DNA of 64,000 nucleotides from a virus. A program made the translations under genes and the position numbers. Below the pieces are notes generated by a model that saw only the letters and a program-made list of their open reading frames with translations, was not told where the DNA came from and searched no databases. The stretch is taken from positions 1-64,000 of IMG/VR virus record IMGVR_UViG_3300027983_000009; one strand, 5' to 3'. Of this stretch, positions 7,400 through 62,627 are shown piece after piece (the first letter of the stretch is position 1; the number at the start of each line of letters is the position of its first letter).

Positions 7400-7738
7400 G
7401 TGGAGTCAGTAGTGACCAGTGAACGAAATATGATGTGTCCCTGCGGCAGTAATAAAAAGGTCAAGAAGTGTTGCGGTAACAGCAAGAAAGCGGCAGAGCC
7501 CCCACACAAGCCAAAAGGTGTACCGCAGGTAGCGCAAGCAATGCTTGCTGCAGGCATAGATAAGGCGGTTGTTTACGCCTACTACAATACTGGTGAGTTT
7601 ATAGTCGAGGAGTCTCGACACTGTCAGTCCGTAGAGGGGTTGCAGGTTTGGGACGCGCACTTGGCTGCGTTCGCAATTCTGGATGAGGAAACTCAGAGTA
7701 GTGTCATATCTCAGTGTGTTAACGGAGCGTTTCAGTGA
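7400..7738 (+). CDS. SEC-C motif protein
   Basis: RNMMCPCGSNKKVKKCCG. Confidence 0.75.
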   Translation: MESVVTSERNMMCPCGSNKKVKKCCGNSKKAAEPPHKPKGVPQVAQAMLAAGIDKAVVYAYYNTGEFIVEESRHCQSVEGLQVWDAHLAAFAILDEETQSSVISQCVNGAFQ

Positions 7739-9274: not shown

Positions 9275-9982
9275 GTGGCAAAAAAACGAGCAGTATCCTC
9301 TGCGACTCTTGGTGACGCAGTCACCCCGCTACCGACAGGGCGGCTGAGGTTGCGGAAGGATCCGGCATCGTTTGCGACGGAGCACCCCGTTCCTGACGGG
9401 GTGTTTGTCCGCGTAATCGGGCTGGACCTGGGTACGAAATGCGGGTTCGCTGTTTGCGACCTGCAGAAAGATAAACCTCTTGACGGGCAGCTGATCGTTG
9501 CCGGGATATGGGATCTGTCTGTAGGGCCGTTTGACTCGGGTGCGTTAAGGCATCTCAGACTGCGGCAGTTCCTGGCTGTGACAAAGCCAGATTTCATCTC
9601 GTTTGAGAATGTGAAGTACACACCACCAGCGGAACAGTTTAAGGGTAGACTGTCACCAGCTGCTATTGTGGCCAGGGCTGCAACGTCGCAGGAGTTCCTG
9701 GGCGGGCTGAAGATGACAGTGTTATCGTGGGCAGAGGCGAATGGGGTACCTACTCAACCGCAGGATATTGGTACGATAAAGAAGTACGCAACTGGTAAGG
9801 GTGTAGCCAGCAAGTTGGATATGGTGCGAGCAGCCAATACTAAATATGGGATGAATCTGGTAGATTCATCGGAAGAAGAAGCCCGCGCAGTTGGGGATGA
9901 CAATGTGGCAGACGCGGTGTTTTGCTGCAGCCTCGGTATAGACATGTACAAAGAGGGTCTTGCTGAGTATACGCAGCGGTAA
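9275..9982 (+). CDS. ruvC: RuvC-like Holliday junction resolvase
   Basis: VIGLDLGTKCGFAV, ISFENV, IKKYATGKGVASKLDM, DDNVADA. Confidence 0.8.
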   Translation: MAKKRAVSSATLGDAVTPLPTGRLRLRKDPASFATEHPVPDGVFVRVIGLDLGTKCGFAVCDLQKDKPLDGQLIVAGIWDLSVGPFDSGALRHLRLRQFLAVTKPDFISFENVKYTPPAEQFKGRLSPAAIVARAATSQEFLGGLKMTVLSWAEANGVPTQPQDIGTIKKYATGKGVASKLDMVRAANTKYGMNLVDSSEEEARAVGDDNVADAVFCCSLGIDMYKEGLAEYTQR

Positions 9983-25567: not shown

Positions 25568-25828
25568 ATGGTAGATGATATGCCGGAACATGATGAGCCG
25601 CTCTACAGTGGTGCGGACAGTGATTTGCTGGTGGCCCCCGCAGAGGAGGATGCAGCAAAGGTCAATGGTTTCGTTAATGACGACTTCGCCGAAGATGCCG
25701 ACGATGATGCCGATGACGACGATGACGACGATGATGATGATGACGATGACGATGACGATGATGATGACGACGATGATGACGACGATGATGACGACGAAGA
25801 AGACTACGACGACAATTTTGCAGGTTAG
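25568..25828 (+). CDS. Highly acidic poly-Asp protein
   Basis: (GAY)n tract ~25700-25812; AAGGA RBS; followed by terminator. Confidence 0.6.
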   Translation: MVDDMPEHDEPLYSGADSDLLVAPAEEDAAKVNGFVNDDFAEDADDDADDDDDDDDDDDDDDDDDDDDDDDDDDDDEEDYDDNFAG

Positions 25829-28284: not shown

Positions 28285-28428
28285 CTGTTGTACTCCCTGT
28301 GTTTTGCGTTGCTGGCACGGATATGCCTCTGCGGTCTTGTGTTCTTCGCCTCTGTGTGGCAGACTATAACCCTGAACTCCACCCCTTGCTACCAATCAAG
28401 TCAAACCAGCGGAAACAAAGGATTTATT

Positions 28429-29694
28429 ATGTCGGATGCACTTGCAGCGATCAGGGCGTGGAGAAAAAGTGCACTTGTTTCGCCAATGGTTGCACCGGGT
28501 AACACAGCACCAAGACAGCAGCCCGGGGCACGACATGTGATGGGGAGTGGAATACCGCAAACAGGGCTTTCGACGCAGCGAGGAAAGGCTCCAGCGTTTC
28601 CAGGGTTGCCAGGAAGTCCAGCAGGAAATCCCATAGAGACACACGGAGCGTTGGGGCCGGCTGGGACTGTGGATGGCAACCACGCAGCAGGTGTAGCGAA
28701 AGGATTTAAGATTGGCAGGGCAAGGCTTGCGGAGAAGGGTATGCAGGCAACTTCTTCTGGGAAAATCAATGTTTTTAGTAAAGATTCATCCCAGCTCCGC
28801 GGGTTCGTAGCAGGGCAGAGGAAGACTGCAGGCATGTATGCGGCTCATATTGTCTCGGCAAACCTACCACCTGAGCAGCGCAAGCAACTACTTGCGATAG
28901 CGAAGAACGTGGCCAGGTTTCGCCAAGCTATCGCGACAGATATGTCATCGCAGGGTTATCAGTCGTACGCTGGTGGAAGCACAAACTTCCGTGACGACAT
29001 ACTTGAGCAGTTTCTGGAAAAGAACAAGGATGCACAGGTGGAGGCTGGCGATTCTTATGAGATATCTGCGAGAGGTCCTCGTCGGTGGATGGGTTTGCGA
29101 CAAGGTGCACGTATTCCGATTGGGGAGGGTTACGCGACGTTAATGGATCATTTTGATGAGGGTGGGCAGGGGTATGAGCGTGACGAGTCTCATGCTGTAA
29201 CAGATTTTTACGGCGAGGTGGATCCCGCTATTCACAGCTTTTTAGGTCAGATGACAGGCGGCCGCTACAAAACACCGAAACCTCCGAAGGCACCATCTGC
29301 TCCGAAGTTAGAGGGTGTACCGGCGATAAAGGCGGCATTCAGACAACCGACTGATGTGTCGCCATACGCAGGTATTCATCGACGGATTCGCCACACTCTG
29401 GCGGGTGGTGCGATGGGCGGGTTAGTTGGTGTTGGGGTTGGTGGTTTAACTGGGGCTGGCGGGGCTGCCGGTGCCACAATTGGCGGGCTGCACGGCATGT
29501 TTAGCGATCCGGGTGTAGATGAGGAGGGCAAGAAGCGGAGCCGGATGATGGCTGCACTTCGTGGTTCTCTGGGTGGTGGGGCGTTGGGTGCAGCTGGCGG
29601 ATTGGCAGCTGGTGTTGGCGGGCTGGCTGGTGGTGCAGCTGGCGGCACAGTCGGGGCCAGCATCGACGACTGGCCCGTGGCGCCGCAGCTGTGA
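28429..29694 (+). CDS. Gly/Ala-rich protein with K-x-A motifs (possible virion-internal protein)
   Basis: KSA/KTA/KAA motifs, glycine-zipper-like C-terminal helices. Confidence 0.55.
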   Translation: MSDALAAIRAWRKSALVSPMVAPGNTAPRQQPGARHVMGSGIPQTGLSTQRGKAPAFPGLPGSPAGNPIETHGALGPAGTVDGNHAAGVAKGFKIGRARLAEKGMQATSSGKINVFSKDSSQLRGFVAGQRKTAGMYAAHIVSANLPPEQRKQLLAIAKNVARFRQAIATDMSSQGYQSYAGGSTNFRDDILEQFLEKNKDAQVEAGDSYEISARGPRRWMGLRQGARIPIGEGYATLMDHFDEGGQGYERDESHAVTDFYGEVDPAIHSFLGQMTGGRYKTPKPPKAPSAPKLEGVPAIKAAFRQPTDVSPYAGIHRRIRHTLAGGAMGGLVGVGVGGLTGAGGAAGATIGGLHGMFSDPGVDEEGKKRSRMMAALRGSLGGGALGAAGGLAAGVGGLAGGAAGGTVGASIDDWPVAPQL

Positions 29695-30070
29695 GCTCTC
29701 ACATATACGCTCTCACATATACTCTCTCACAGCACATTTTGACAACAATCCCAGCCTTGCGGGTTCGTAGCAGGATAACAGGGGGCCAAAGTATACAGCT
29801 CCTCACATATACTCTCTCACGTATACGCTCTCACAGCAATCCCAGCCAGGCGGGTTCATAGCACGGCAACTGCACAAGTCCTCACATATACTCTCTCACA
29901 ACAATCCCAGCTCTGCGGGTTCGAAGCAAGGCATGAACAGGGTTGTCACAGTGCACAATTCCTCACATATACGCTCTCACAGCAATCCCAGCCAGGCGGG
30001 TTCATAGCACGGCAGCACAGTCCAGGATCCACAATAACAATCCCAGCCTTGCGGGTTCGAAGCAGGGCAT
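29695..30070 (+). CRISPR. Degenerate CRISPR-like mini-array: 5 Cas12m-type pseudoknot repeats with interspersed CTCACATATAC(G/T)CTCTCAC motifs
   Basis: CAATCCCAGCyNNGCGGGTTCrwAGCA at 29746, 29837, 29902, 29983, 30038 with unique intervening segments. Confidence 0.5.
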
Positions 30071-30105
30071 CGCGTGCAGCCGGACAAACAAGCACAGGAG
30101 AAAAC

Positions 30106-31251
30106 ATGTTCAACAACCTCACGGATCTGCGGGCAGTCCACTGTCTATATGTGTTGACGCATCCGGATAGCCAGCTACAGAAGCAGGCCATCAACATGAA
30201 GGGTCTTTCCAAAGTCCTGTCCCGTACAGCCTCCAAAACAATGGGCAGGCCTGTGGCAGGACCTGGAGCTGCACCGATACAGTCGCCGGTCAGGCAGATG
30301 CGTGTGCCTACACCGGCGCAGCAGAAATCAATCACCACATCAATGGCGACCAAGGTACCGCCGCCACCAGCCAAGTCGTTGGCGACCAGAGCTGTAGCAG
30401 CTGTGACACCTGCTGTGAAGGCTGTCGCGGCACCCAGATCGAGACCGGCACCAGCGTTGGTAGAAGCGAACATAGGCAAACCTTTGCCGAGTCGTGCTGG
30501 TAGAGCCCTCAACACTGTCGCTAACGTGCCTGCAGGTGAGAGATTTCGCCAGAGGCCAGTCATGAACACAGCAAAACTGCTGTCCGCTGACGGTGTGCCG
30601 GGTATGCGTAGGCTGAATCAGGCCGCGGCTGCCGGCTTGGTGTATTCGGGAGCTCGGGGCCTCAGTGATGCGAATCAGGCTGTGAACGATTCGATCTACA
30701 ACACGACCAGCGATTATGGTGTGCAGGCTGGGCTGACACCTAATCAGAGAAGGAGGCTGAGTGAGCAGGGGCAGAAGGTCAAGCAGTACACGTTGCAGGA
30801 TGCAACCCTCGGGAGACTGAAACGAAATATTTTCGGTCATGGGGGTGACGAGGCTGCTGTAACCGCATCTAAATACAGAGATGAGTTGTACGGCTTGGCG
30901 TTGAATGATGCGATGAAATATCAACTCTCTAAACCTGCTGTGGGTCGCGGTATGTTGGATTCCCTAATGCATTACAGAAGCCCGGCTGCTGCAGCTGTGT
31001 CAGGTGTGCAGCAGGCGGGTAAAAACTATCTGGGTGGTCATATGGAGTACAACGATCCAGCTGCGTACGCTGGGCCGATACAGCAAATGTACTCTACTAT
31101 GAGGCCAGAAAACGAGCAGGATGCTAAGGATATGGCAGCAGCTGCTGTTCAAGGCGGCTGGAAACACCTGACACCAGAGCAGCAGCGGAAGCTGATTGAG
31201 AAGGTTGGACCGGCTGCAATAGCAGCAATGACTGCAAGTGTCGGCAGGTGA
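30106..31251 (+). CDS. Ala/Pro-rich hypothetical protein with KQA motif
   Basis: AGGAG RBS; long ORF. Confidence 0.6.
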   Translation: MFNNLTDLRAVHCLYVLTHPDSQLQKQAINMKGLSKVLSRTASKTMGRPVAGPGAAPIQSPVRQMRVPTPAQQKSITTSMATKVPPPPAKSLATRAVAAVTPAVKAVAAPRSRPAPALVEANIGKPLPSRAGRALNTVANVPAGERFRQRPVMNTAKLLSADGVPGMRRLNQAAAAGLVYSGARGLSDANQAVNDSIYNTTSDYGVQAGLTPNQRRRLSEQGQKVKQYTLQDATLGRLKRNIFGHGGDEAAVTASKYRDELYGLALNDAMKYQLSKPAVGRGMLDSLMHYRSPAAAAVSGVQQAGKNYLGGHMEYNDPAAYAGPIQQMYSTMRPENEQDAKDMAAAAVQGGWKHLTPEQQRKLIEKVGPAAIAAMTASVGR

Positions 31252-31296
31252 CGCCAACGCATCACAGTAAACAGTAAACAGTATAGGAGGCAGAGT

Positions 31297-31527
31297 ATGC
31301 AGATAACACTGGCAGCCAGGTCGTCGACAACTGCGGTATCTCTTCGGCTGTACAGAGTGCTAGCACAGGACAGAGAGTGGTCTTCTGTGAATTATGTGCG
31401 GGCAGCTGACGAGGGTCACGCCGTCACGTGCGTCAGGAATACGAATCAGGATCTGTACAATAATAGCCGTGTGTGGTTCAGTGTGACCATACAGGATGAT
31501 TCCAAAGGAGTCGTGTTCAGAAGATAG
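31297..31527 (+). CDS. Hypothetical protein
   Basis: AGGAGG RBS. Confidence 0.5.
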   Translation: MQITLAARSSTTAVSLRLYRVLAQDREWSSVNYVRAADEGHAVTCVRNTNQDLYNNSRVWFSVTIQDDSKGVVFRR

Positions 31528-31584: not shown

Positions 31585-34500
31585 ATGAAGCAGGTGAAGT
31601 TAGAAAAACTCACACAAGAACAGATCGCGCAGCTCCCGCTGCACACAGAGAAATGGTTGGAGATAGGGCTATCATGTGAGCCGTGCGATTTCGAGAAGGC
31701 CAAAGCGGCTGCAATCGAGTGCTACGTAGCAGCTGGGCTGGAGCCGCCCAAATTGTTTCTTCTTTTCGATTCGCCCATAGCGGCGGCTATGGGGGCGGTA
31801 GCACTGCAGTCTATTGCCTCGGATCAAGGTATGGAGCGGCTCCAGCACCAGCTCAGGAATAAAATCTTGGCGAAGGCCTGGGCGCAGGTCAGTGATCAGG
31901 TCGGTGCGAAGGTACGGGATCATGTCAAGGGACAGGTCGGCGATAGGATCGTGTATCAGATCTGGCAGACGGTCCGGGATTCTCTCACTGCTCAGGTCGG
32001 TGATCGTGTCGATGCTCAGGTCAGCGAGCAGGTCACCGAGCAGGTCGGTAAGCAGATCAGGAATCAGCTCGCTGAGCAGGTCTTGGCTCAGCTCGACAAC
32101 CAGGTCAGTGCTCAGGTCAGTTCTATGATCAACGATCGGGTCACGTGGTCGGTACGGGATATGGTCAACGGGGGGGTCAGTGATATGATCCGCGAGCAGG
32201 TCACGTGGCCGGTACGGGATATGGTCAACGAGGAGGTCTCGGATCAGGTCCGGAATCAGCTCACTGATCAGGTCTTGGAGCCGGTCGGTGATGCGATCCA
32301 CTCGCAGGTCTCGGAGCTGCTACGGGAGCAGATCTGGGAGCAGGTCCGAGATCAGATCTGGGGTCGGATCGATACTCAGATCCGTGATCATATCCGGGAA
32401 CAGGTCGGCGATGATATCAGTGAGCAGATATGGGAGGCGGGCAATGCTACGCTCGCGGTTCGGGATCAGCTCTTGAGGCCGGTCCAGGATCAGGCCTGGG
32501 AGGTAGCCCAAGAGGCGATTGCGCATACTCCAGGCGAGAAAGTCAGCGATCAGGTACAGGTTAAGGTCTTGGGGCAGATCTGGGGTAAGCTCTGCGAGGA
32601 GCTCAGTAGTGAAGTCTTGGATCAGGTCATGAATCATGTCGTCGAGCCGGTCGAGCCGGTTATGTCGCAGATCCGGGACCGAATCCGGGAACAGGTCGGC
32701 GAGCAGGCCCAGGATCAGGCCAGTGCGGGGGTCCGCATTCAGGTCGATGCGCATGTCAGGTATGGGGTCACCGAGCCGGTCGGTGAGCAGGTTGGTACTC
32801 GTGTCTGGGGGCAGGTCTGGGCTGAGGCCAATAACCAGGTCAGTAATCAGGTCGCTGCACAAATCAGTGAGCTGATCAGTGGGCAGGTCGGTGAGCATGT
32901 CTGGGGTAAGGTCCGTGGTCCGGTCTCGGCTCAGGTACGCGAGAGCGTCGGTGAGCAGATCCAGGAGCAGGCTTGGAAGCAGGCCAGCGAGCAGACCCTT
33001 GAGGAGGTCGGTGATCAGGTCTCGGAGCCGCTCAGCGAGCCTGTCCGTGGGATGATCCGGGATCACGTCTTGGGTCAGGTTATTGATCAGATCCATGAGC
33101 AGATCAGCGAGACGGTCCGTAGGGTGATCCTGGGGCAGGTCAGCGGGCAGGTTCGGGAGCAAGTCTGGGAGCAGATCCGGATGCGCGTCAGCGGTCAGGT
33201 CGGCGAGCAGGTCCGGGATACTGTCTCGGGTCAGGTCCATGAGCTGGTCAGCGAGACGACCATGGAGCAGGTCGGTGATCAGGTCTGGGGTCGGGTCATG
33301 AACACTGTAGGTGCACAGGCCCGGGCAGGGGGCCAGAATCAGGATTCGACTTGGGATCGGGTACAGGTTAAGGTCTTGGAGACTGTAGCGGATACGGTAC
33401 GAGAGCAGGTCTTGAATCAGCTCAACGATCAGGTCTTGGAGCAGGTAGGTATGCCGGTATTGGCGCAGATCCAAAATCAGGCTCGGGAACAGGTCGGTGG
33501 TCAGGTCAGTGATCAGGTCAGTGATAGGGTCAGTGATCAGGTCAGTGATGAGGTTCGTGCGGAGGTCTCAGCCCGGGTCCGGAATTCGATCTGGGATCAG
33601 GTCATGGAGCAGGTCCGGCATCAGGTCGATGCGGATGTCAGGGATCTGGTCGGCGGGCAGATCCAAGAGCAGACCTCGGGGCAGGTCAGAAATCAGGTCT
33701 GGGCTCAGACCTGGGATAAGGCCTGGGAGAGTATCAACGCGACGATCCGGGAGAAAATCAGCGAGCAGGTCCGAGAGCAGCTCAAGGATCCGGTCAGGAC
33801 TCAGGTCTGGGATCAGCTCCGGAGTCCGATCTGGGGGCAGGTCCGAGATCAGGTCGGCGAGCCGGCCATGGAGCAGGTCGTGGATCAGGTCTCGAATAAG
33901 GTCTCTGATCAGGTCAACACGGCGATCATGGATCAGGTCCGGGGGCAGGCCCGGAAGCAGACCCAGGAGCAGACCCCGGAGCAGTTACGAGAGCAGCTCC
34001 TGAATAAGGTCAGCGATCAAGTTTTTGGATCGCACGACGTAGGGTGGTTATCTTATTACGCATTTTTCCGCGAGCATTGCGGGTTAACGGAGGCTACAGA
34101 TAAACTTTCCGGACTGCTTGAGCTGGCCAAGAACTGTGGCTGGTGGGCACCGTATAAGGGTGTGTGCATTTTTCAGCACCGGCACAGTGAGCTGCACCGA
34201 GATGAAGCGGGGCGACTGCACAACGAGACAGGGATGGCGTGTCGGTACCGTGATGGTTTTGGGGTCTGGTCGCTTCACGGCATACTAGTGGATGAGCAGA
34301 TTGTTATGCGACCGGAGACACAAACGGTTGCGCAGATCAACGAGGAGACGAATCAAGACATCCGATCTATCCGAATCACCCGGTTTGGGTGGGCCAGGTA
34401 TATTGAAGAGTCTGGTGCGGTGTGTGTGCACAGCATGATCAATCAGATCAGCAACACACCAGAAGCGTTGTACCGATTGGCAGACAATTCACAGAGGCTT

Positions 34501-34623
34501 GTTGCTGGCTGTGTGACTGGTAAGATGGTTACGATGGGTGTCCCATCTACCATCATGACGTGCGAGCAGGCTCAGCTGTGGCTTGCTGGCGACAAAAAGT
34601 TCAATCTGATAGCAGCTACATGA
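31585..34623 (+). CDS. DUF6745-like protein with large internal (QVxx/DQV) repeat expansion
   Basis: N-term KLTQEQ...WLEIGL...DSP; C-term GSHDVGWLSYY...CGWW...GRLHNETG..RYRDGFGVW; ~730 aa of periodic repeats. Confidence 0.75.
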   Translation: MKQVKLEKLTQEQIAQLPLHTEKWLEIGLSCEPCDFEKAKAAAIECYVAAGLEPPKLFLLFDSPIAAAMGAVALQSIASDQGMERLQHQLRNKILAKAWAQVSDQVGAKVRDHVKGQVGDRIVYQIWQTVRDSLTAQVGDRVDAQVSEQVTEQVGKQIRNQLAEQVLAQLDNQVSAQVSSMINDRVTWSVRDMVNGGVSDMIREQVTWPVRDMVNEEVSDQVRNQLTDQVLEPVGDAIHSQVSELLREQIWEQVRDQIWGRIDTQIRDHIREQVGDDISEQIWEAGNATLAVRDQLLRPVQDQAWEVAQEAIAHTPGEKVSDQVQVKVLGQIWGKLCEELSSEVLDQVMNHVVEPVEPVMSQIRDRIREQVGEQAQDQASAGVRIQVDAHVRYGVTEPVGEQVGTRVWGQVWAEANNQVSNQVAAQISELISGQVGEHVWGKVRGPVSAQVRESVGEQIQEQAWKQASEQTLEEVGDQVSEPLSEPVRGMIRDHVLGQVIDQIHEQISETVRRVILGQVSGQVREQVWEQIRMRVSGQVGEQVRDTVSGQVHELVSETTMEQVGDQVWGRVMNTVGAQARAGGQNQDSTWDRVQVKVLETVADTVREQVLNQLNDQVLEQVGMPVLAQIQNQAREQVGGQVSDQVSDRVSDQVSDEVRAEVSARVRNSIWDQVMEQVRHQVDADVRDLVGGQIQEQTSGQVRNQVWAQTWDKAWESINATIREKISEQVREQLKDPVRTQVWDQLRSPIWGQVRDQVGEPAMEQVVDQVSNKVSDQVNTAIMDQVRGQARKQTQEQTPEQLREQLLNKVSDQVFGSHDVGWLSYYAFFREHCGLTEATDKLSGLLELAKNCGWWAPYKGVCIFQHRHSELHRDEAGRLHNETGMACRYRDGFGVWSLHGILVDEQIVMRPETQTVAQINEETNQDIRSIRITRFGWARYIEESGAVCVHSMINQISNTPEALYRLADNSQRLVAGCVTGKMVTMGVPSTIMTCEQAQLWLAGDKKFNLIAAT

Positions 34624-35083: not shown

Positions 35084-35174
35084 TTGCTCATAAGCAGCAA
35101 GGTCCACTCTGTGCAGCCGGCTCATTGCGAGCCGGCTGCAGCAGGTGGCGGACAAAAAGAGAAGGGAGCGATAA

Positions 35175-35435
35175 GTGGAGGAACCCAGCAGCTTCAAACC
35201 AGTCGGTAGCAACCACATCGACGGCTACGGCAACCAGTGCGGCAACGGCTCCGGCTATGGCAACGGATACGGCTATGGCAACGTCTACGGCTATGGCAAC
35301 GGATACGGCTACGCCAGCGCCTACGCCAACGTCTACGCCAGCGGTTGCGGCAACGGCAGCTGTTCCGGTTACGGCGACGGCAACGGTTTCGGCAACGGCA
35401 GCAGCACAGTGTCGACATCTACCAGACGACGGTAA
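35175..35435 (+). CDS. Gly/Tyr/Asn-rich mini-protein, cassette 1
   Basis: SSFKPVG...TVSTSTRRR. Confidence 0.55.
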   Translation: MEEPSSFKPVGSNHIDGYGNQCGNGSGYGNGYGYGNVYGYGNGYGYASAYANVYASGCGNGSCSGYGDGNGFGNGSSTVSTSTRRR

Positions 35436-35454
35436 CAGGAAGCAGGAAGGTAAA

Positions 35455-35751
35455 ATGCGCAGCTTAAAACTAGTAGGCTACAGCTTAGGCTACGATCCAA
35501 GTTACGGCAACGGCAATGGCAATGGCTACGGCTATGGCAACGGCCACGGCAACAGCAACGGCTGCGACTACGGTAGCGGCTACGGTACCGGCAGCTGTTC
35601 CGGTTACGGCAACGGTTACAGCTATGGCAACCAATACGGCTCCGGCTCAGGCCCCGGCTCTGGCTTCGGGAACGGTTACAACGGCTACAGCAACGGCGAC
35701 GGCGGCGGTTACGGCGACACCACCATCTCAACGACTACCAGAAGACGGTAG
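35455..35751 (+). CDS. Gly-rich mini-protein, cassette 2
   Basis: MRSLKLVG...TISTTTRRR; GGAAGG RBS. Confidence 0.6.
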   Translation: MRSLKLVGYSLGYDPSYGNGNGNGYGYGNGHGNSNGCDYGSGYGTGSCSGYGNGYSYGNQYGSGSGPGSGFGNGYNGYSNGDGGGYGDTTISTTTRRR

Positions 35752-35771
35752 CAGAAAGCAGGAAGGTAAAA

Positions 35772-36068
35772 ATGAGTAGTGTAAAACCAGTAGGTGGCGG
35801 TATTCGTTACGGTAGCGGACAAGGTTACGGCGCCGGTTACAGCTTCGTCAACGGTAACGGCCACGGCTTCGGCTTCGGCAACAGCTGCAACCGCGGTACC
35901 GGCAATGGTTACATTAGCGGCCGCAGCTTCAGCAACGGCTACGGCAGCGGCTACAGTAACGGCGACGGCGACGGTTATGGCGACGGCAACGAGCGAGGCG
36001 GCCACAGTTACGGCGACGGCTACGGCTATGGCAACGGCACAGTCTCAACAGTTACCAGAAGACGGTAG
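35772..36068 (+). CDS. Gly-rich mini-protein, cassette 3
   Basis: MSSVKPVG...TVSTVTRRR. Confidence 0.6.
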   Translation: MSSVKPVGGGIRYGSGQGYGAGYSFVNGNGHGFGFGNSCNRGTGNGYISGRSFSNGYGSGYSNGDGDGYGDGNERGGHSYGDGYGYGNGTVSTVTRRR

Positions 36069-36088
36069 CAGGAAGCAGAGAGGTAAAA

Positions 36089-36415
36089 ATGAGCAGTGTA
36101 AAACTAGTAGGTGGCGGCCTCCGTTACGGCGGAGGCCGCAGTTCCGGGCAGAACAGTGGCTGTGGTAGCGGCTGTGGCTACGGTGACAGCTACGGCTGTG
36201 CCAGCGGCAGCGGTAGTGGCAGTGGTTACGGCAGCTACGGCAGCGACGGCGGCGGAGGCTACGGCGAAGGCTACTGCAACGGCAGCGGCGCTGGCAACGG
36301 CGCCGGTTACCGTGGAGGAAACGGCGGCGGCTACGGTAACGGTACCGACAACAGCTTCGGCAACGGCTTCGGTCATGGCATCAGCACAATCTCAACAGCC
36401 ACCAGAAGACGTTAA
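36089..36415 (+). CDS. Gly-rich mini-protein, cassette 4
   Basis: MSSVKLVG...TISTATRRR. Confidence 0.6.
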   Translation: MSSVKLVGGGLRYGGGRSSGQNSGCGSGCGYGDSYGCASGSGSGSGYGSYGSDGGGGYGEGYCNGSGAGNGAGYRGGNGGGYGNGTDNSFGNGFGHGISTISTATRRR

Positions 36416-36435
36416 TAGGAAGCAGGAAGGTAAAA

Positions 36436-36723
36436 ATGAGCAGCTTAAAACTAGTAGGTAGCGGCCACGGCCTGGGTTACGGCTTCGGCAACGGCTTCGG
36501 ATTCGGATACGGTTACAGCACCGGATACGGTAACGGCTTCGGCTTCGGCTTTGGCTTCGGCAACAACGGTCGATACGGCAGCACCAACGGCTCCGGCTCC
36601 GGTTCTGGCACTGGCTCCGGCGACTGCGACAGCTACAGCAGCAACGGCAACGGCTACAGCAGGAACGGCTTCGGCAACGGCAACGGTAACGGCACAGTGT
36701 CGACCTCTACCAGAAGACGATAA
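36436..36723 (+). CDS. Gly-rich mini-protein, cassette 5
   Basis: MSSLKLVG...TVSTSTRRR. Confidence 0.6.
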   Translation: MSSLKLVGSGHGLGYGFGNGFGFGYGYSTGYGNGFGFGFGFGNNGRYGSTNGSGSGSGTGSGDCDSYSSNGNGYSRNGFGNGNGNGTVSTSTRRR

Positions 36724-36749
36724 TGTGTAGCAGGGTGTAAAGGGTGTAA

Positions 36750-36767
36750 TCGGTTATTGATAACCGA
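36750..36767. promoter_or_regulatory. Palindromic operator-like site (GTTATnnATAAC family)
   Basis: TCGGTTATTGATAACCGA. Confidence 0.55.
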
Positions 36768-36838
36768 GCTCATAGAGAGCTGACTCATTGTGAGGCAGCG
36801 ACAGTAAGTGGTAAGCAATAATCAGAAAAAGAAACAGA

Positions 36839-37162
36839 ATGATCGATCAGACAGTAGTGATCAACGGTGTTAAGTATGTCCGAGAAGACTCAGTTCCAGT
36901 ACCACGACCGACTGGAAGCAGGGCTGTAGTTGTGGTGGATCGCGGGTGGATCTTCGCTGGGGATGCTCGGCGGGAGGACGGCAGGATCTTCCTGAGCAGA
37001 GCGATCCTTGTCTTCAAATGGGAAGAAGTTGGGTTCGACGGGATGCTCTCAAATCCGCTGTCGACTAAAGTATTCCTGCGACCGCTGCAGAATGATGTCG
37101 AGATCCCGGCAGGGTCGGAGATTTGCTCCGTTCCGGTATCGGAAAACTGGGGGCTGAAGTGA
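36839..37162 (+). CDS. DUF6948-like small beta protein
   Basis: INGVKYVRED...VVVVDRGWIFAG...L..A..V..W. Confidence 0.5.
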   Translation: MIDQTVVINGVKYVREDSVPVPRPTGSRAVVVVDRGWIFAGDARREDGRIFLSRAILVFKWEEVGFDGMLSNPLSTKVFLRPLQNDVEIPAGSEICSVPVSENWGLK

Positions 37163-37368
37163 GCCCAGCCCCGAGCGGCAACACCTTGAAACTTGTAGGC
37201 TACAGCTTAGGCCACTGTTACGGCGCCGGCTACGGTTACGGCAGCGGCAACAGCTACGGCTATGGCTACGGCTATGGCAGCGGCTATGGCAGCGGATTCG
37301 GCAGCGTCTATGCCAGCGGTGACGGTTTCGGCAACGACAGGCAATCAAACAGGAGGACTCAGTGGTAG
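37159..37368 (+). CDS. Gly-rich mini-protein, cassette 6
   Basis: LKLVGYSLG...GYGYG; GTGA overlap. Confidence 0.5.
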   Translation: MSPAPSGNTLKLVGYSLGHCYGAGYGYGSGNSYGYGYGYGSGYGSGFGSVYASGDGFGNDRQSNRRTQW

Positions 37369-42370: not shown

Positions 42371-43891
42371 AGATCTGCGATAACTGTAGGCTGGAGAAAA
42401 ACATACTTATCCTACTAGACAGCGAGTTTGGCGGCGGAGGTGTGGAGCTGTGTGTGCACTGCCACGACAAGCTGGCGAAGCAGGTCGAGAAGATAAATAG
42501 CCGATTGGCAGCAATTCGGGACAGGGCTCGGCAGCGGGCCTTCAAAGAGTTAATGAGTGAGAACCCTCTACCTATCCGGGTTCAGCGAGCCCGGTGGGCT
42601 ATCACAGCGTTACTGTTGACTCTGTTTAGCTCCTCCACAAAGGGCGAACCGTGAGCACAGGGAAGCAGATGTGTGATCGCGAGCAAACGCCACTTTACTC
42701 GATAGGTACGTGGGATACGCACAGACAGGCCTTCACGCCGCATCGGGGGCTGTCTGTGCCGTCTTTCAACATTACTATCCTCCAGTTGAGGGTAGCTATG
42801 CGGGAGCTGCAAGAGACGGGCTATAGGTGCCACAGGTACCGAGGCCTAAACGGCGGAGAGGAGGACAATGACACGAGTGTGCTCATTGAAAGAACAGACG
42901 GGCAACCCTGGCGGGATATCCGTCGGGGTTGGAACAGATAACGAGCACCTAACACGCGAAGGGTTGAGAATTATGATGCTTGAAGAGGGTAAATACTACA
43001 AGAGCAGAGATGGGTATATAGTAGGCCCGGTAAGGCTAAGACTGCCGGTCGAGCGATATACTACTTTCCCATTCACGAGCCAGCTCGGAATAACGTACAC
43101 GAATAACGGGGTGGTTTATCGCACGCACGAGACAGGCGACGATTTGGTAAGCACGTGGGACCCTGTTGTGGCTCTAGCAGCACAGGCAGCACCGGTAGCA
43201 CCGGTAGCACCCGTTTCAGACAGTTGTGCGATCACGGGCATACCGTGGGTAGACTGGTTTAATCTGCAGAGCGATACCGATAGGCGGGTGATTGCGATAG
43301 AAGCACTTGCGGAGCTGCTCAGCCAGGCCACAATACTTGTCCGCACAGTTGGGGATACTGATGAAGTGGAATCTCTGTGTTGGGACAGCGGCGGAGAGAG
43401 TTTGAGTATACCCCTCTAGAGTGGTGAGTATGTTTGGTTATTCTGCAGAAATGAAGCCGCTGCAGAGGCATGCCTACCACTGTACGCTGAACTTGAGGCA
43501 GGTCAACTTCACAGGTAAAAAATTGTGTAACAGCACCACGGAATTACGAGATAACGAGAAACAGAGGGGACTAGACATGCAGATTTTTGGATCAAAACTC
43601 TGGCGGTTCTTTGGCGGAGAGAGGATTGAGGATGGGTTCAGACAGCTGTCCGACAGCATTATCAGTAACCGCAAGTTGATTTCAGAACTGCGCACAGAGA
43701 TCCTGTTGTTGCAGCGGAGAGTGTGGGCATTAGAATCGCACACTATTGAGGAGTCCGTGGCAGAGTGCGAGAAGAAGCTTGCGTCGTTTGAGGCGAGTGT
43801 AATAGCGTGGGCACCGATAGCACCAGATGAGCCGGACGCGCCGGATGTGGCAGTTGAGCCGGACGCGCCGGATGTGGCAGTTGAGCCGTGA
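42367..43891 (+). other. Four hypothetical CDS (42367-42654 CxxC, 42651-42941, 42973-43419, 43577-43891)
   Basis: Overlapping start/stop codons, RBSs. Confidence 0.5.
43442..43530 (-). promoter_or_regulatory. Antisense sigma70-type promoter + pseudoknot repeat cassette (copy 1)
   Basis: Minus strand: AT tract, TTGACC-16-TACAGT, 9 nt, GCC TC TGCAGC GGC TTCATT TCTGCA GA. Confidence 0.65.
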
Positions 43892-49678: not shown

Positions 49679-49691
49679 CAACCCAGCCAAT

Positions 49692-49769
49692 GTGTAGTGC
49701 CGCTGCAGAGGCGTAATATCTGCAGAGCCCAGAATATGGTGACAACCCTGCCGACGTTCGGCGGGGTTG
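49692..49769 (+). ncRNA. Repeat + 16-nt segment + hairpin immediately upstream of cas12m
   Basis: GTGTAGT GCC GC TGCAGA GGC GTAATA TCTGCA GA; 12-bp hairpin 49743-49769. Confidence 0.55.
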
Positions 49770-49809
49770 GCAGCAAGCAGCAAACATCAAACAGAGAGCA
49801 GGAATCAGA

Positions 49810-59968: not shown

Positions 59969-60011
59969 ACCGTTGTGGTCTTGCAGTCGTTTTTGTTTTT
60001 TTGGCTGTTAC

Positions 60012-60079
60012 GCCTCTGCAGAGGCTTCGTGTCTGCAGCTGAAGAAATGAAGCCTCTGCAGAGGCTTTGTGTCTGCAGA
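60012..60079 (+). repeat. Two tandem pseudoknot repeats (60012, 60052)
   Basis: GCC TC TGCAGA GGC TTyGTG TCTGCA x2, 40-nt period. Confidence 0.7.
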
Positions 60080-60142
60080 GGCAGAGATACTGCGCCTGCG
60101 AATGGTGCATCATCAGTTCACTGTAGCTATGTAGGGAGTAAC

Positions 60143-61189: not shown

Positions 61190-61218
61190 CCGCAGAGGCA
61201 GCAAACAGGACGTAGCGA

Positions 61219-61307
61219 TCTGCAGAAATGAAGCCTCTGCAGGGGCATGACTAGCACTGTACGCTGAACCTGTGGCGAGTCAACTGCACAGGTAAAAAAT
61301 TGTGTAA
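61219..61307 (-). promoter_or_regulatory. Antisense promoter + pseudoknot repeat cassette (copy 2)
   Basis: TTGACT-16-TACAGT, 9 nt, GCC CC TGCAGA GGC TTCATT TCTGCA GA. Confidence 0.65.
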
Positions 61308-62307: not shown

Positions 62308-62526
62308 ATGGCCAGATTCACAATCGCAGAGCTGAAGGCTGGTACGTGCAGCATGACAGAGCTGGCTCGCGTGATAGATTTGAAATTGAGTAGATGGCCG
62401 GGGAATTGCGACTTTGTGGCGACGAAGCTGGTAGAGTACGGCCAATTACCGGGCCGCGTAGTGCGAGGTCACTACCATGGCCGAATATCATCTGCAGAAA
62501 TGAAGCCTCTGCAGAGGCATGCCTAG
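62308..62526 (+). pseudogene. Probably truncated gene running into the antisense cassette
   Basis: Last 12 codons are cassette sequence (SAEMKPLQRHA*). Confidence 0.4.
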
Positions 62527-62579
62527 CACTGTACGCTGAACTTGAGGCGAGTCAACTGCACAGGTAAAAAATTGTGTAA
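62491..62579 (-). promoter_or_regulatory. Antisense promoter + pseudoknot repeat cassette (copy 3)
   Basis: TTGACT-16-TACAGT, 9 nt, GCC TC TGCAGA GGC TTCATT TCTGCA GA. Confidence 0.65.
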
Positions 62580-62627
62580 AATCCCCCTAAACGCCTCAAT
62601 AGAGGCTGCTCGAACGAAAGGATAACT

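Follow-up and report, generated by a model that had tools for sequence, protein, structure and literature searches.

The freshwater phage sequence considered here, namely, the first 64 kb (the window) of the 82,680-base IMG/VR virus record IMGVR_UViG_3300027983_000009, raises the question of what fills a gap of 411 nucleotides (nt) between two plus strand genes, at 29695-30105 (stop 29694, ATG 30106). The gap holds five irregularly spaced copies of an element resembling the repeats of type V-M CRISPR arrays, here termed handles, with a gene for the type V-M effector Cas12m lying 19.7 kb downstream. As argued below, the cluster is best read as a non-adaptive pseudo-array and not as a decayed canonical array. 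More specifically, it is proposed, with a probability of roughly 0.45, that these Cas12m handles were multiplied by duplication, are transcribed together and would give rise to CRISPR RNA (crRNA)-like RNAs and to a messenger RNA (mRNA) headed by a handle.

The pattern CAATCCCAGCNNNGCGGGTTC matches exactly at 29746, 29837, 29902, 29983 and 30038 (copies c1 to c5), always on the plus strand, such that both the positions and the spacings of 91/65/81/55 given in a preliminary description of this stretch, prepared from the letters alone, are exact; a repeat finder also recovered these copies at the same spacings, as five 35-nt elements with 77-100% likeness. A sixth match (c0), also on the plus strand and with two mismatches, begins at 28786. 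When up to three mismatches were allowed, these six matches in the window compared with 0.08 expected, and six were reached in 0 of 100 shuffles. Across the whole record, the pattern was found at the same six places only, with no match on the minus strand. The second, 14-nt motif, CTCACATATACKCT, appears six times between 29698 and 29975, five times exactly and once with one mismatch. With up to two mismatches, seven matches were found as compared to 0.78 expected, a number again reached in 0 of 100 shuffles. The seventh, at 58380 with two mismatches, is an unrelated chance match, apart from which the motif is absent elsewhere in the 82.7 kb on both strands. As previously described, such units precede four of the copies; these are copies 1-4, with copy 5 being without one.

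The effector gene is as follows.

49810-51801, plus strand: cas12m, encoding 663 amino acids (aa); match to PDB 23vw_A with E 3.1e-44

Together with further structure matches to UnCas12m4a (E 2.7e-15) and Cas12m2 (8hio_A; E 2.9e-14), this shows the open reading frame (ORF) to encode a true Cas12m homologue. Where the solved Cas12m reads IDLGWR, the phage protein reads AHLGYR, with the His being invariant in eight aligned close homologues. A protein search yielded 13 Cas12m relatives, and scans of IMG/VR and metagenome contigs yielded 35 loci, in 15 of which a regular array with a period of 66-77 lies beside the gene. The array begins 20-30 nt past the stop codon in L020 and L007, which are the closest of the relatives, at 50% and 47% identity, respectively. 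Five IMG/VR loci encode full-length Cas12m relatives, and in four of these a regular array adjoins the gene. By contrast, a simple period finder showed no regular array anywhere in the present record, for which CheckV completeness is ~57%, so that the missing part could hold one; this agrees with the earlier expectation that standard finders would miss the cluster. Nor were matches to Cas1 (PF01867) or Cas2 (PF09827) obtained in this ~57%-complete 82.7-kb record, in searches in which positive controls were detected.

The arrays of the relatives provided 14 distinct repeats (from 15 arrays, one duplicate being left out) that align nearly without gaps. Their common layout runs from an 8-nt tail, in many cases with CAAT at its end, through a 3-bp stem and one or two unpaired nt to a 6-nt strand, after which the stem returns; next come a 6-nt loop, in most cases with TT as its first letters, the return of that strand and a final AC. 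In this alignment, 99.2% of the helix cells are paired and double changes are seen in 9 of 9 pairs; the covariation score was reached in 0 of 500 shuffles, while slid controls were 30-48% paired. The two-helix layout agrees with the solved crRNA of Cas12m2, described in the cited part of PMC10442227 as a stem plus pseudoknot with a flipped-out A(-24) and a 17-bp heteroduplex, and with the 'stem I / stem II' drawing in the cited part of PMC11013384.

Two covariance models were built, namely, R1, from the 14 foreign V-M repeats alone, and R2, from 18 other handles of the phage, with the cluster and c0 left out. The alignment behind R2 is 93.9% paired and shows double changes in 7 of 10 pairs. 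The E-values of these home-made models are rough. In the layout of the repeats, c1 reads as an 8-nt tail, a 3-bp stem, an A, a 7-nt helix strand, the stem return, a 6-nt loop, the helix return and 2 nt. The parts of the cluster, together with c0, are as follows.

28782-28818, plus strand: c0, sixth handle, CCC/GGG subtype, 15 nt before the ATG at 28834 (R2 16.9 bits, E 0.039)
29698-29732, plus strand: two 14-nt units CTCACATATACKCT and a partial unit, CTCACAG, beginning 4 nt past the stop codon
29742-29778, plus strand: handle c1, long helix 6/7 paired (R2 17.2 bits, E 0.033)
29779-29832, plus strand: tail of c1, 23 unique nt followed by two 14-nt units and a partial unit
29833-29869, plus strand: handle c2, long helix 5/7 paired, with two central mismatches (R2 9.9 bits, E 2.5)
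29870-29897, plus strand: tail of c2, comprising 11 nt, a single 14-nt unit and a partial unit
29898-29934, plus strand: handle c3, long helix 6/7 paired, the copy closest to the handle just after cas12m (not among the R2 matches at E<=5)
29935-29978, plus strand: tail of c3, comprising 17 unique nt, a c2-tail paralogue, a single 14-nt unit and a partial unit
29979-30015, plus strand: handle c4, long helix 5/7 paired (R2 9.8 bits, E 2.6)
30016-30033, plus strand: tail of c4, at 18-19 nt the shortest, without a 14-nt unit
30034-30070, plus strand: handle c5, the sole cluster copy with a fully paired long helix (7/7, one G-U; R2 16.4 bits, E 0.052)

The five copies fit the columns of the foreign repeats, with the stem CCC/GGG, the unpaired A and a 6-nt loop starting with TTC being present in all. 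The 5' strand of the second helix lies inside the short stem, for which pairing is seen in 15 of 15 cells in c1-c5 and in 24 of 24 in an eight-row alignment, these columns being 100% paired in the 14 foreign repeats; the unpaired A and the TT-starting 6-nt loop are each found in 5/5 cluster copies (8/8 rows of the larger alignment). No variation is seen across the cluster in the short stem, the A, the start of the loop or the ends of the helix. In the long helix, 29 of 35 cells are paired, as compared to 98.8% in the foreign repeats and 91.3% in the 18 other handles of the phage. R2 recovered its 18 training rows and two more minus strand copies, after which c1, c0 and c5 were the first three plus strand matches outside the training set. 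R1 did return other handles of the phage, namely, that at 53667 with 25.5 bits (E 1e-4), three at E<=0.0025 (26226, 60004 and 61408) and another four at E<=0.03. The kinship with V-M repeats is seen in the column-for-column fit to the same covarying helices as occur in the arrays of the relatives, so that the preliminary description of Cas12m-type repeats holds. The cluster copies appear to represent a diverged subtype of Cas12m handles, sharing the architecture while scoring weakly in sequence, an assignment that is less than clear-cut. They carry a CCC/GGG short stem, as opposed to GCC/GGC in most handles of the phage. The near-equality of copy 3 to the handle just after cas12m, also pointed out earlier, amounts to 78% identity over 27 nt.

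Other approaches to the structure were considered. Thermodynamic folding of the 411 nt gave z-scores of 0.32 (plus strand) and 0.47 (minus strand), with the lack of a folding-energy signal being explained by the inability of the programme to form pseudoknots. A nested fold, in which the loop triplet pairs downstream and the short stem is not formed, was set aside, the pseudoknot model already covering it. For copy counting, a permissive regular expression for the handle structure returned 41 matches on the plus strand and 27 on the minus strand, as compared to 26.2 +/- 4.4 in shuffles, and was too loose; covariance models were therefore used to count handles. An Rfam scan of the whole window at gathering thresholds gave no matches.

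How the cluster came about can be read from an alignment of its five units, in which a constant 36-37-nt handle is followed by tails of 54, 28, 44 and 18 nt (55, 29, 45 and 19 nt when a 36-nt repeat is assumed). The tails of units 1-3 end with a TGCACAAkTCC-like piece, followed by the 14-nt unit, present once or twice, and by a partial CTCACAR abutting the next CAAT. The first 18 nt of the c2 tail recur inside the c3 tail at 29951, with two mismatches, the tails of copies 2 and 4 begin with related letters, and c2 and c4 are identical over 47 nt (29822-29868 and 29968-30014). These shared tail pieces and the identity of c2 to c4 reveal an origin by duplication, and argue that the cluster grew by tandem duplication of 55-91-nt units, each comprising handle, tail and 14-nt filler, and not by spacer acquisition. 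The earlier claim that each copy is followed by a unique segment thus stands only in part. Each of the four tails between handles has a length of 18-19 nt or more, sufficient for a 17-nt guide.

Contigs from other sequencing runs offer partial evidence of variation at this site, with the strain differences given here being among those listed. One contig, from run X9, otherwise identical, joins 29821 to 29968 to give a three-handle form; this 146-nt skip may reflect either true variation in copy number or a collapse of the 47-nt exact repeat during assembly. Runs X4, X7 and X8 contain a diverged strain with many differences in the flanks and with 49 other letters in place of 514 nt of the Gly-rich upstream gene (28836-29351), a replacement from which that gene would appear to be hypervariable. 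The cluster of the diverged strain is still multi-copy, being found in short, high-depth contigs in the order of c3-like handle, 58 other letters and c1-like handle. Among the differences listed, the c1 handle of this strain contains at least one change (at 29768, in the loop) and the c1 tail at least nine insertions (29784-29815). In c0 of the same strain, the central triplet is changed from TCC to CTT, and the long helix is fully paired again.

With regard to expression, a scanner returned no sigma-70-type promoter sites in 28500-30400 and no terminator was seen inside 29695-30105; given that neither was found, the simplest reading is that the cluster belongs to a plus strand transcript shared with the flanking genes. 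The 14-nt units were also considered as sigma-70 promoters and rejected, since some contain TATACT and others TATACG, with no -35 box at 16-18 nt. According to the cited part of PMC11013384, Cas12m cuts precursor crRNA (pre-crRNA) within the repeat to yield 50-60-nt crRNAs, and the mechanism of this processing is called unresolved there and in the cited part of PMC10442227. Because Cas12m proteins so treat pre-crRNA, it is proposed that the phage Cas12m would bind each handle in the shared transcript and cut just upstream of it, thereby freeing four crRNA-like RNAs of ~55-91 nt, in which the 17-20 nt past the handle would be in the guide position. c5, the best-formed handle, would remain on the leader of the mRNA of the gene at 30106. 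It sits 35 nt before that ATG, and its first 20 following nt miss the ribosome-binding site. Any guided action would presumably involve binding or silencing and not cutting, because a His replaces the Asp of the IDLG motif, which we take to be the first RuvC catalytic Asp and hence to have been lost from the phage Cas12m.

Were the cluster RNAs processed and loaded by the phage Cas12m, guide or handle RNAs could multiply by plain duplication, without an array, a leader or adaptation genes, and a DNA-binding Cas12 effector would have been recruited to a phage regulatory or anti-host programme. The cluster also offers a natural test bed for the RNA binding and processing needs of Cas12m, presenting five handles of graded helix quality in one predicted transcript.

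Several observations weigh against this proposal. At the level of the handle, long-helix mismatches are found in four of the five copies, and the terminal AC (A35 and C36), found unchanged in every one of the 14 foreign repeats, is missing, with the cluster copies ending in CA (TA in c1) in that register, followed by A, A, T, G, T. R1 scored c5 at 10.7 bits (E 1.6), while c1-c4 were not among its matches at E<=10; with R2, E-values for c2 and c4 exceeded 2 and c3 was not returned, as listed above. At the level of the tails, their paralogy means that they are not independent spacers. When the tails of c0-c5 and of the post-cas12m handle were compared with the 82.7 kb, four matches with up to four mismatches were found, 6.4 being expected. 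No 9-12-nt tail seed with a TTN flank was found in the phage record, although the protospacer-adjacent motif of the phage Cas12m may differ, and exact 20-mers of the c1 and c3 tails each gave no matches in IMG/VR. Lastly, a tandem handle pair elsewhere in the phage, at 60004-60080, with 11 nt between cores, leaves no room for a guide.

In related searches, all 26 handle tails gave 25 matches in the record versus nine expected, the excess being handle-to-handle, while comparison of the cluster with a phage collection at E<=10 gave only two chance-level rows (E 5), both on the c2/c4 handle.

The same evidence bears on the earlier suggestion of a remnant or modified CRISPR array. Whereas its Cas12m-type repeats are upheld, an array of acquired spacers, as defined by a regular period and unrelated spacers, is not supported, given the irregular spacings (91/65/81/55, as compared to 66-77 in the relatives), paralogous segments containing a second repeat and the absence of Cas1 and Cas2 from the record, as well as the pseudoknot-helix mismatches and the failure to find a target for any tail.

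The main rival to the proposed guide-bearing cluster is that the copies are guide-less Cas12m binding sites in the leader of the gene at 30106, acting as a sink or controlling processing, stability or translation, with the tails carrying no targeting information. This is possible, if distinctly less probable than the production of crRNA-like RNAs, and is suggested by the distribution of handles across the phage. Apart from the cluster and c0, R2 revealed 20 further handles, 15 on the plus strand and five on the minus strand, all within 25.9-62.5 kb (25911-62526) and none in 1-25 kb or 63-82.7 kb. Of the 17 plus strand handles outside c1-c4, about nine, c0 among them, are followed after 8-22 nt by a start codon that has a Shine-Dalgarno-like motif ahead of it, although short intergenic gaps alone would place any intergenic element near the next start. 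The tandem pair without guide room, the duplicated tails with their filler repeats and the lack of targets found for them likewise fit guide-less sites, but c1-c4 lie 90-330 nt from the start codon, as opposed to 35 nt for c5, and the weakened long helix in four of five handles is odd for a pure binding site. Furthermore, RNA-level regulation by Cas12m is not reported in the cited parts of PMC11013384 and PMC10442227.

Two of the further handles flank cas12m itself.

49691-49727, plus strand: single handle, 82 nt ahead of the start codon of cas12m (R2 41.0 bits)
51812-51848, plus strand: single handle, 11 nt past the cas12m stop codon, long helix 7/7 Watson-Crick paired (R2 36.3 bits, as a training row; R1 13.9 bits, E 0.2)

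The second occupies the position where the regular arrays of the relatives begin. Relatives with regular arrays keep one or two single, slightly degenerate handles upstream of cas12m, at 9906 and 9945 in L007 (9906-9975), at 7479 and 7528 in L024 (7479-7562) and near 184-219 in L023; this position is reminiscent of autoregulatory CreR-type elements. The 17 nt past the handle at 53667-53702 (53703-53722) resemble, with three mismatches and without a TTN flank, positions 49766-49785, just past the hairpin upstream of cas12m. At the tandem pair, a third handle copy lies on the opposite strand at 60037-60073, which is explained by the stem and first helix strand forming a perfect palindrome. Three near-identical minus strand cassettes (43441-43530, 61218-61300 and 62490-62594) are oriented against the genes; these antisense cassettes contain a promoter-like site, TTGACC or TTGACT, 17 nt and TACAGT, with a handle 9 nt later.

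A wider view joins the proposed guide-bearing cluster with its main rival. The phage may conceivably have given up its array while retaining a nuclease-dead Cas12m and handles in its own transcripts, with the cluster serving as either a multi-guide silencing module or a sink or timer; as a whole, this is a speculative and rather unlikely scenario. If true, the former would be a module made by duplication and not by Cas1-Cas2 that silences host or rival genes, while the latter would set the amount of free Cas12m available to the phage messages, some 20 in number, that are headed by a handle. In both cases, a CRISPR effector would act as a phage gene-expression regulator without adaptive immunity.

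It is improbable that the cluster is a non-functional, drifting remnant, left by an earlier array or by solitary repeats that were duplicated, which would then record a viral V-M array decaying into solitary repeats. In favour of decay are the long-helix mismatches in four of the five copies, the missing terminal AC, the irregular spacing, the borderline R1 and R2 scores and the possible change in copy number seen in the three-copy contig; against it is that the five copies agree in the short stem, the A, the start of the loop and the ends of the helix. The diverged strain, moreover, keeps a multi-copy cluster with a little-changed handle and a fully pairing triplet in its c0, and 411 nt of junk between genes would be unusual in a compact genome, 92% of which lies inside the ORF set.

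Slightly less probable still is an anti-CRISPR RNA mimic, Racr-like or Cracr-like, that would sequester or re-program a type V-M Cas12m of the host or of a rival element. According to the cited parts of PMC10651486 and bioRxiv 10.1101/2024.10.29.618823, phage repeat mimics are known, often as multiplexed array-like units with degenerate repeats and shortened spacers, and the cluster does form its own CCC/GGG subtype, unlike most handles of the phage. However, the phage's own Cas12m would load such mimics too, and solitary repeat units (SRUs), as described in the cited part of PMC10651486, have their own promoter and no cas linkage, while no promoter was found at the cluster. In addition, the cited main text of the Cracr preprint (bioRxiv 10.1101/2024.10.29.618823) makes no mention of V-M or Cas12m. 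Nor was a host array with the handle pattern found: in 185,579 species genomes (596 billion bases) there were 14 single matches, with ~17 expected by chance, and no arrays, and in IMG/VR there was one single match. The best-looking species-genome match, in an Anaerolineaceae metagenome-assembled genome (L052:1967-2003; R2 17 bits, E 0.014), lies inside a 354-aa minus strand ORF and is therefore probably due to chance.

Iteron-type phage and plasmid origins consist of short direct repeats clustered in a non-coding gap. A DNA-level element of this sort, in which the 14-nt repeats and hairpins would be origin iterons or operator sites, is very improbable, since, although six direct 14-nt units are confined to the gap and G+C content is slightly lower at 29701-29900 (47-51%) than in the flanks, the hairpin units are accounted for by Cas12m handle homology, all units lie on one strand and are co-oriented with transcription, the cluster differs from such origins in its 14-nt period, single orientation and interleaved RNA-type handles, cumulative GC skew rises steadily through the site without a turn (a weak point, as the genes are all on one strand) and Pfam and PHROGs scans recognised no replication or initiator gene beside it.

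Comparison with known systems sets the duplicated handle cluster apart from each. With the type V-M repeats and Cas12m scaffolds presented in the cited parts of PMC10442227 (Cas12m2) and PMC11013384 (GoCas12m and MsCas12m), it shares the CAAT-ending 8-nt tail, the 3-bp stem, the unpaired A, a 6-7-bp pseudoknot helix, the 6-nt TT loop, a guide position directly 3' and a Cas12m gene on the same DNA. It differs from V-M arrays, with their regular 36+36 nt organisation, in its spacings, paralogous tails with 14-nt filler, mismatched helix in 4/5 copies, replaced AC, distance of 19.7 kb from the effector and units made by duplication. Cracr arrays and CreR or scaRNA mini-arrays (cited parts of bioRxiv 10.1101/2024.10.29.618823 and PMC10120712) likewise present degenerate repeats and short or odd spacers without acquisition, are multiplexed in phages and are expected to guide binding and not cutting. 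Those units belong to types I and V-A, rely on host Cas proteins and have spacers partly matching cas or toxin promoters, whereas the present cluster is of type V-M, accompanies a phage-borne effector and has tails for which no target was found. SRUs and Racrs, too, are CRISPR-repeat mimics in phage intergenic regions. In the cited part of PMC10651486, an SRU is defined as a single repeat with none other within 100 bp, its own promoter and no linked cas gene; here, there are five copies within 330 nt, no promoter-like site in 28500-30400 and a cas12m gene. As to phage V-M loci, the myxophage MV-1 similarly encodes a Cas12m without cas1, cas2 or cas4, yet its gene adjoins a regular array and its RuvC residues are canonical, neither of which is seen here (cited part of bioRxiv 10.64898/2026.09.14.751636, where the MV-1 protein is called the first Cas12m in a phage). 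Particular to the present phage is thus the combination of no regular array in the record and a five-unit duplicated cluster with 14-nt filler. No literature linking Cas12m with solitary repeats was found, supplementary tables of SRUs and of viral crRNA-like RNAs lying outside that search.

The genes flanking the cluster are the following.

28834-29694, plus strand: upstream gene, an ORF of 286 aa with a Gly-rich C-terminal part
30106-31251, plus strand: downstream gene, an ORF of 381 aa

Pfam and PHROGs offered no family for the longer upstream ORF (28288-29694) or for the gene at 30106, no relatives of the latter were found in IMG/VR or in five Cas12m-bearing virus records, and blastn comparison of 29000-31500 with the phage collection gave no matches. 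A single-sequence AlphaFold2 model of the product of the gene at 30106 had a mean predicted local distance difference test score of 42 and was not used. Within the window, G+C content is 53.8% and long ORFs are nearly all on the plus strand. Among the public runs listed as containing the stretch, none was of RNA, while the DNA runs are labelled as freshwater, lake, estuary and microbial-mat metagenomes.

Repeats of other kinds were also seen in the window. The very start of the record (1-128) consists of a 15-nt tandem repeat, and a GAT/GAC-rich (acidic) coding repeat of 9/12 nt is found at 25650-25826. Downstream of the cluster, an ORF of 1012 aa at 31585-34623 is largely made of dozens of repeats with a 12-nt period and has a C-terminal match to DUF6745 (E 4.7e-28), while a row of short Gly-rich ORFs at 35125-37368 comprises repeated units of ~317-347 nt, the ends of which are conserved.

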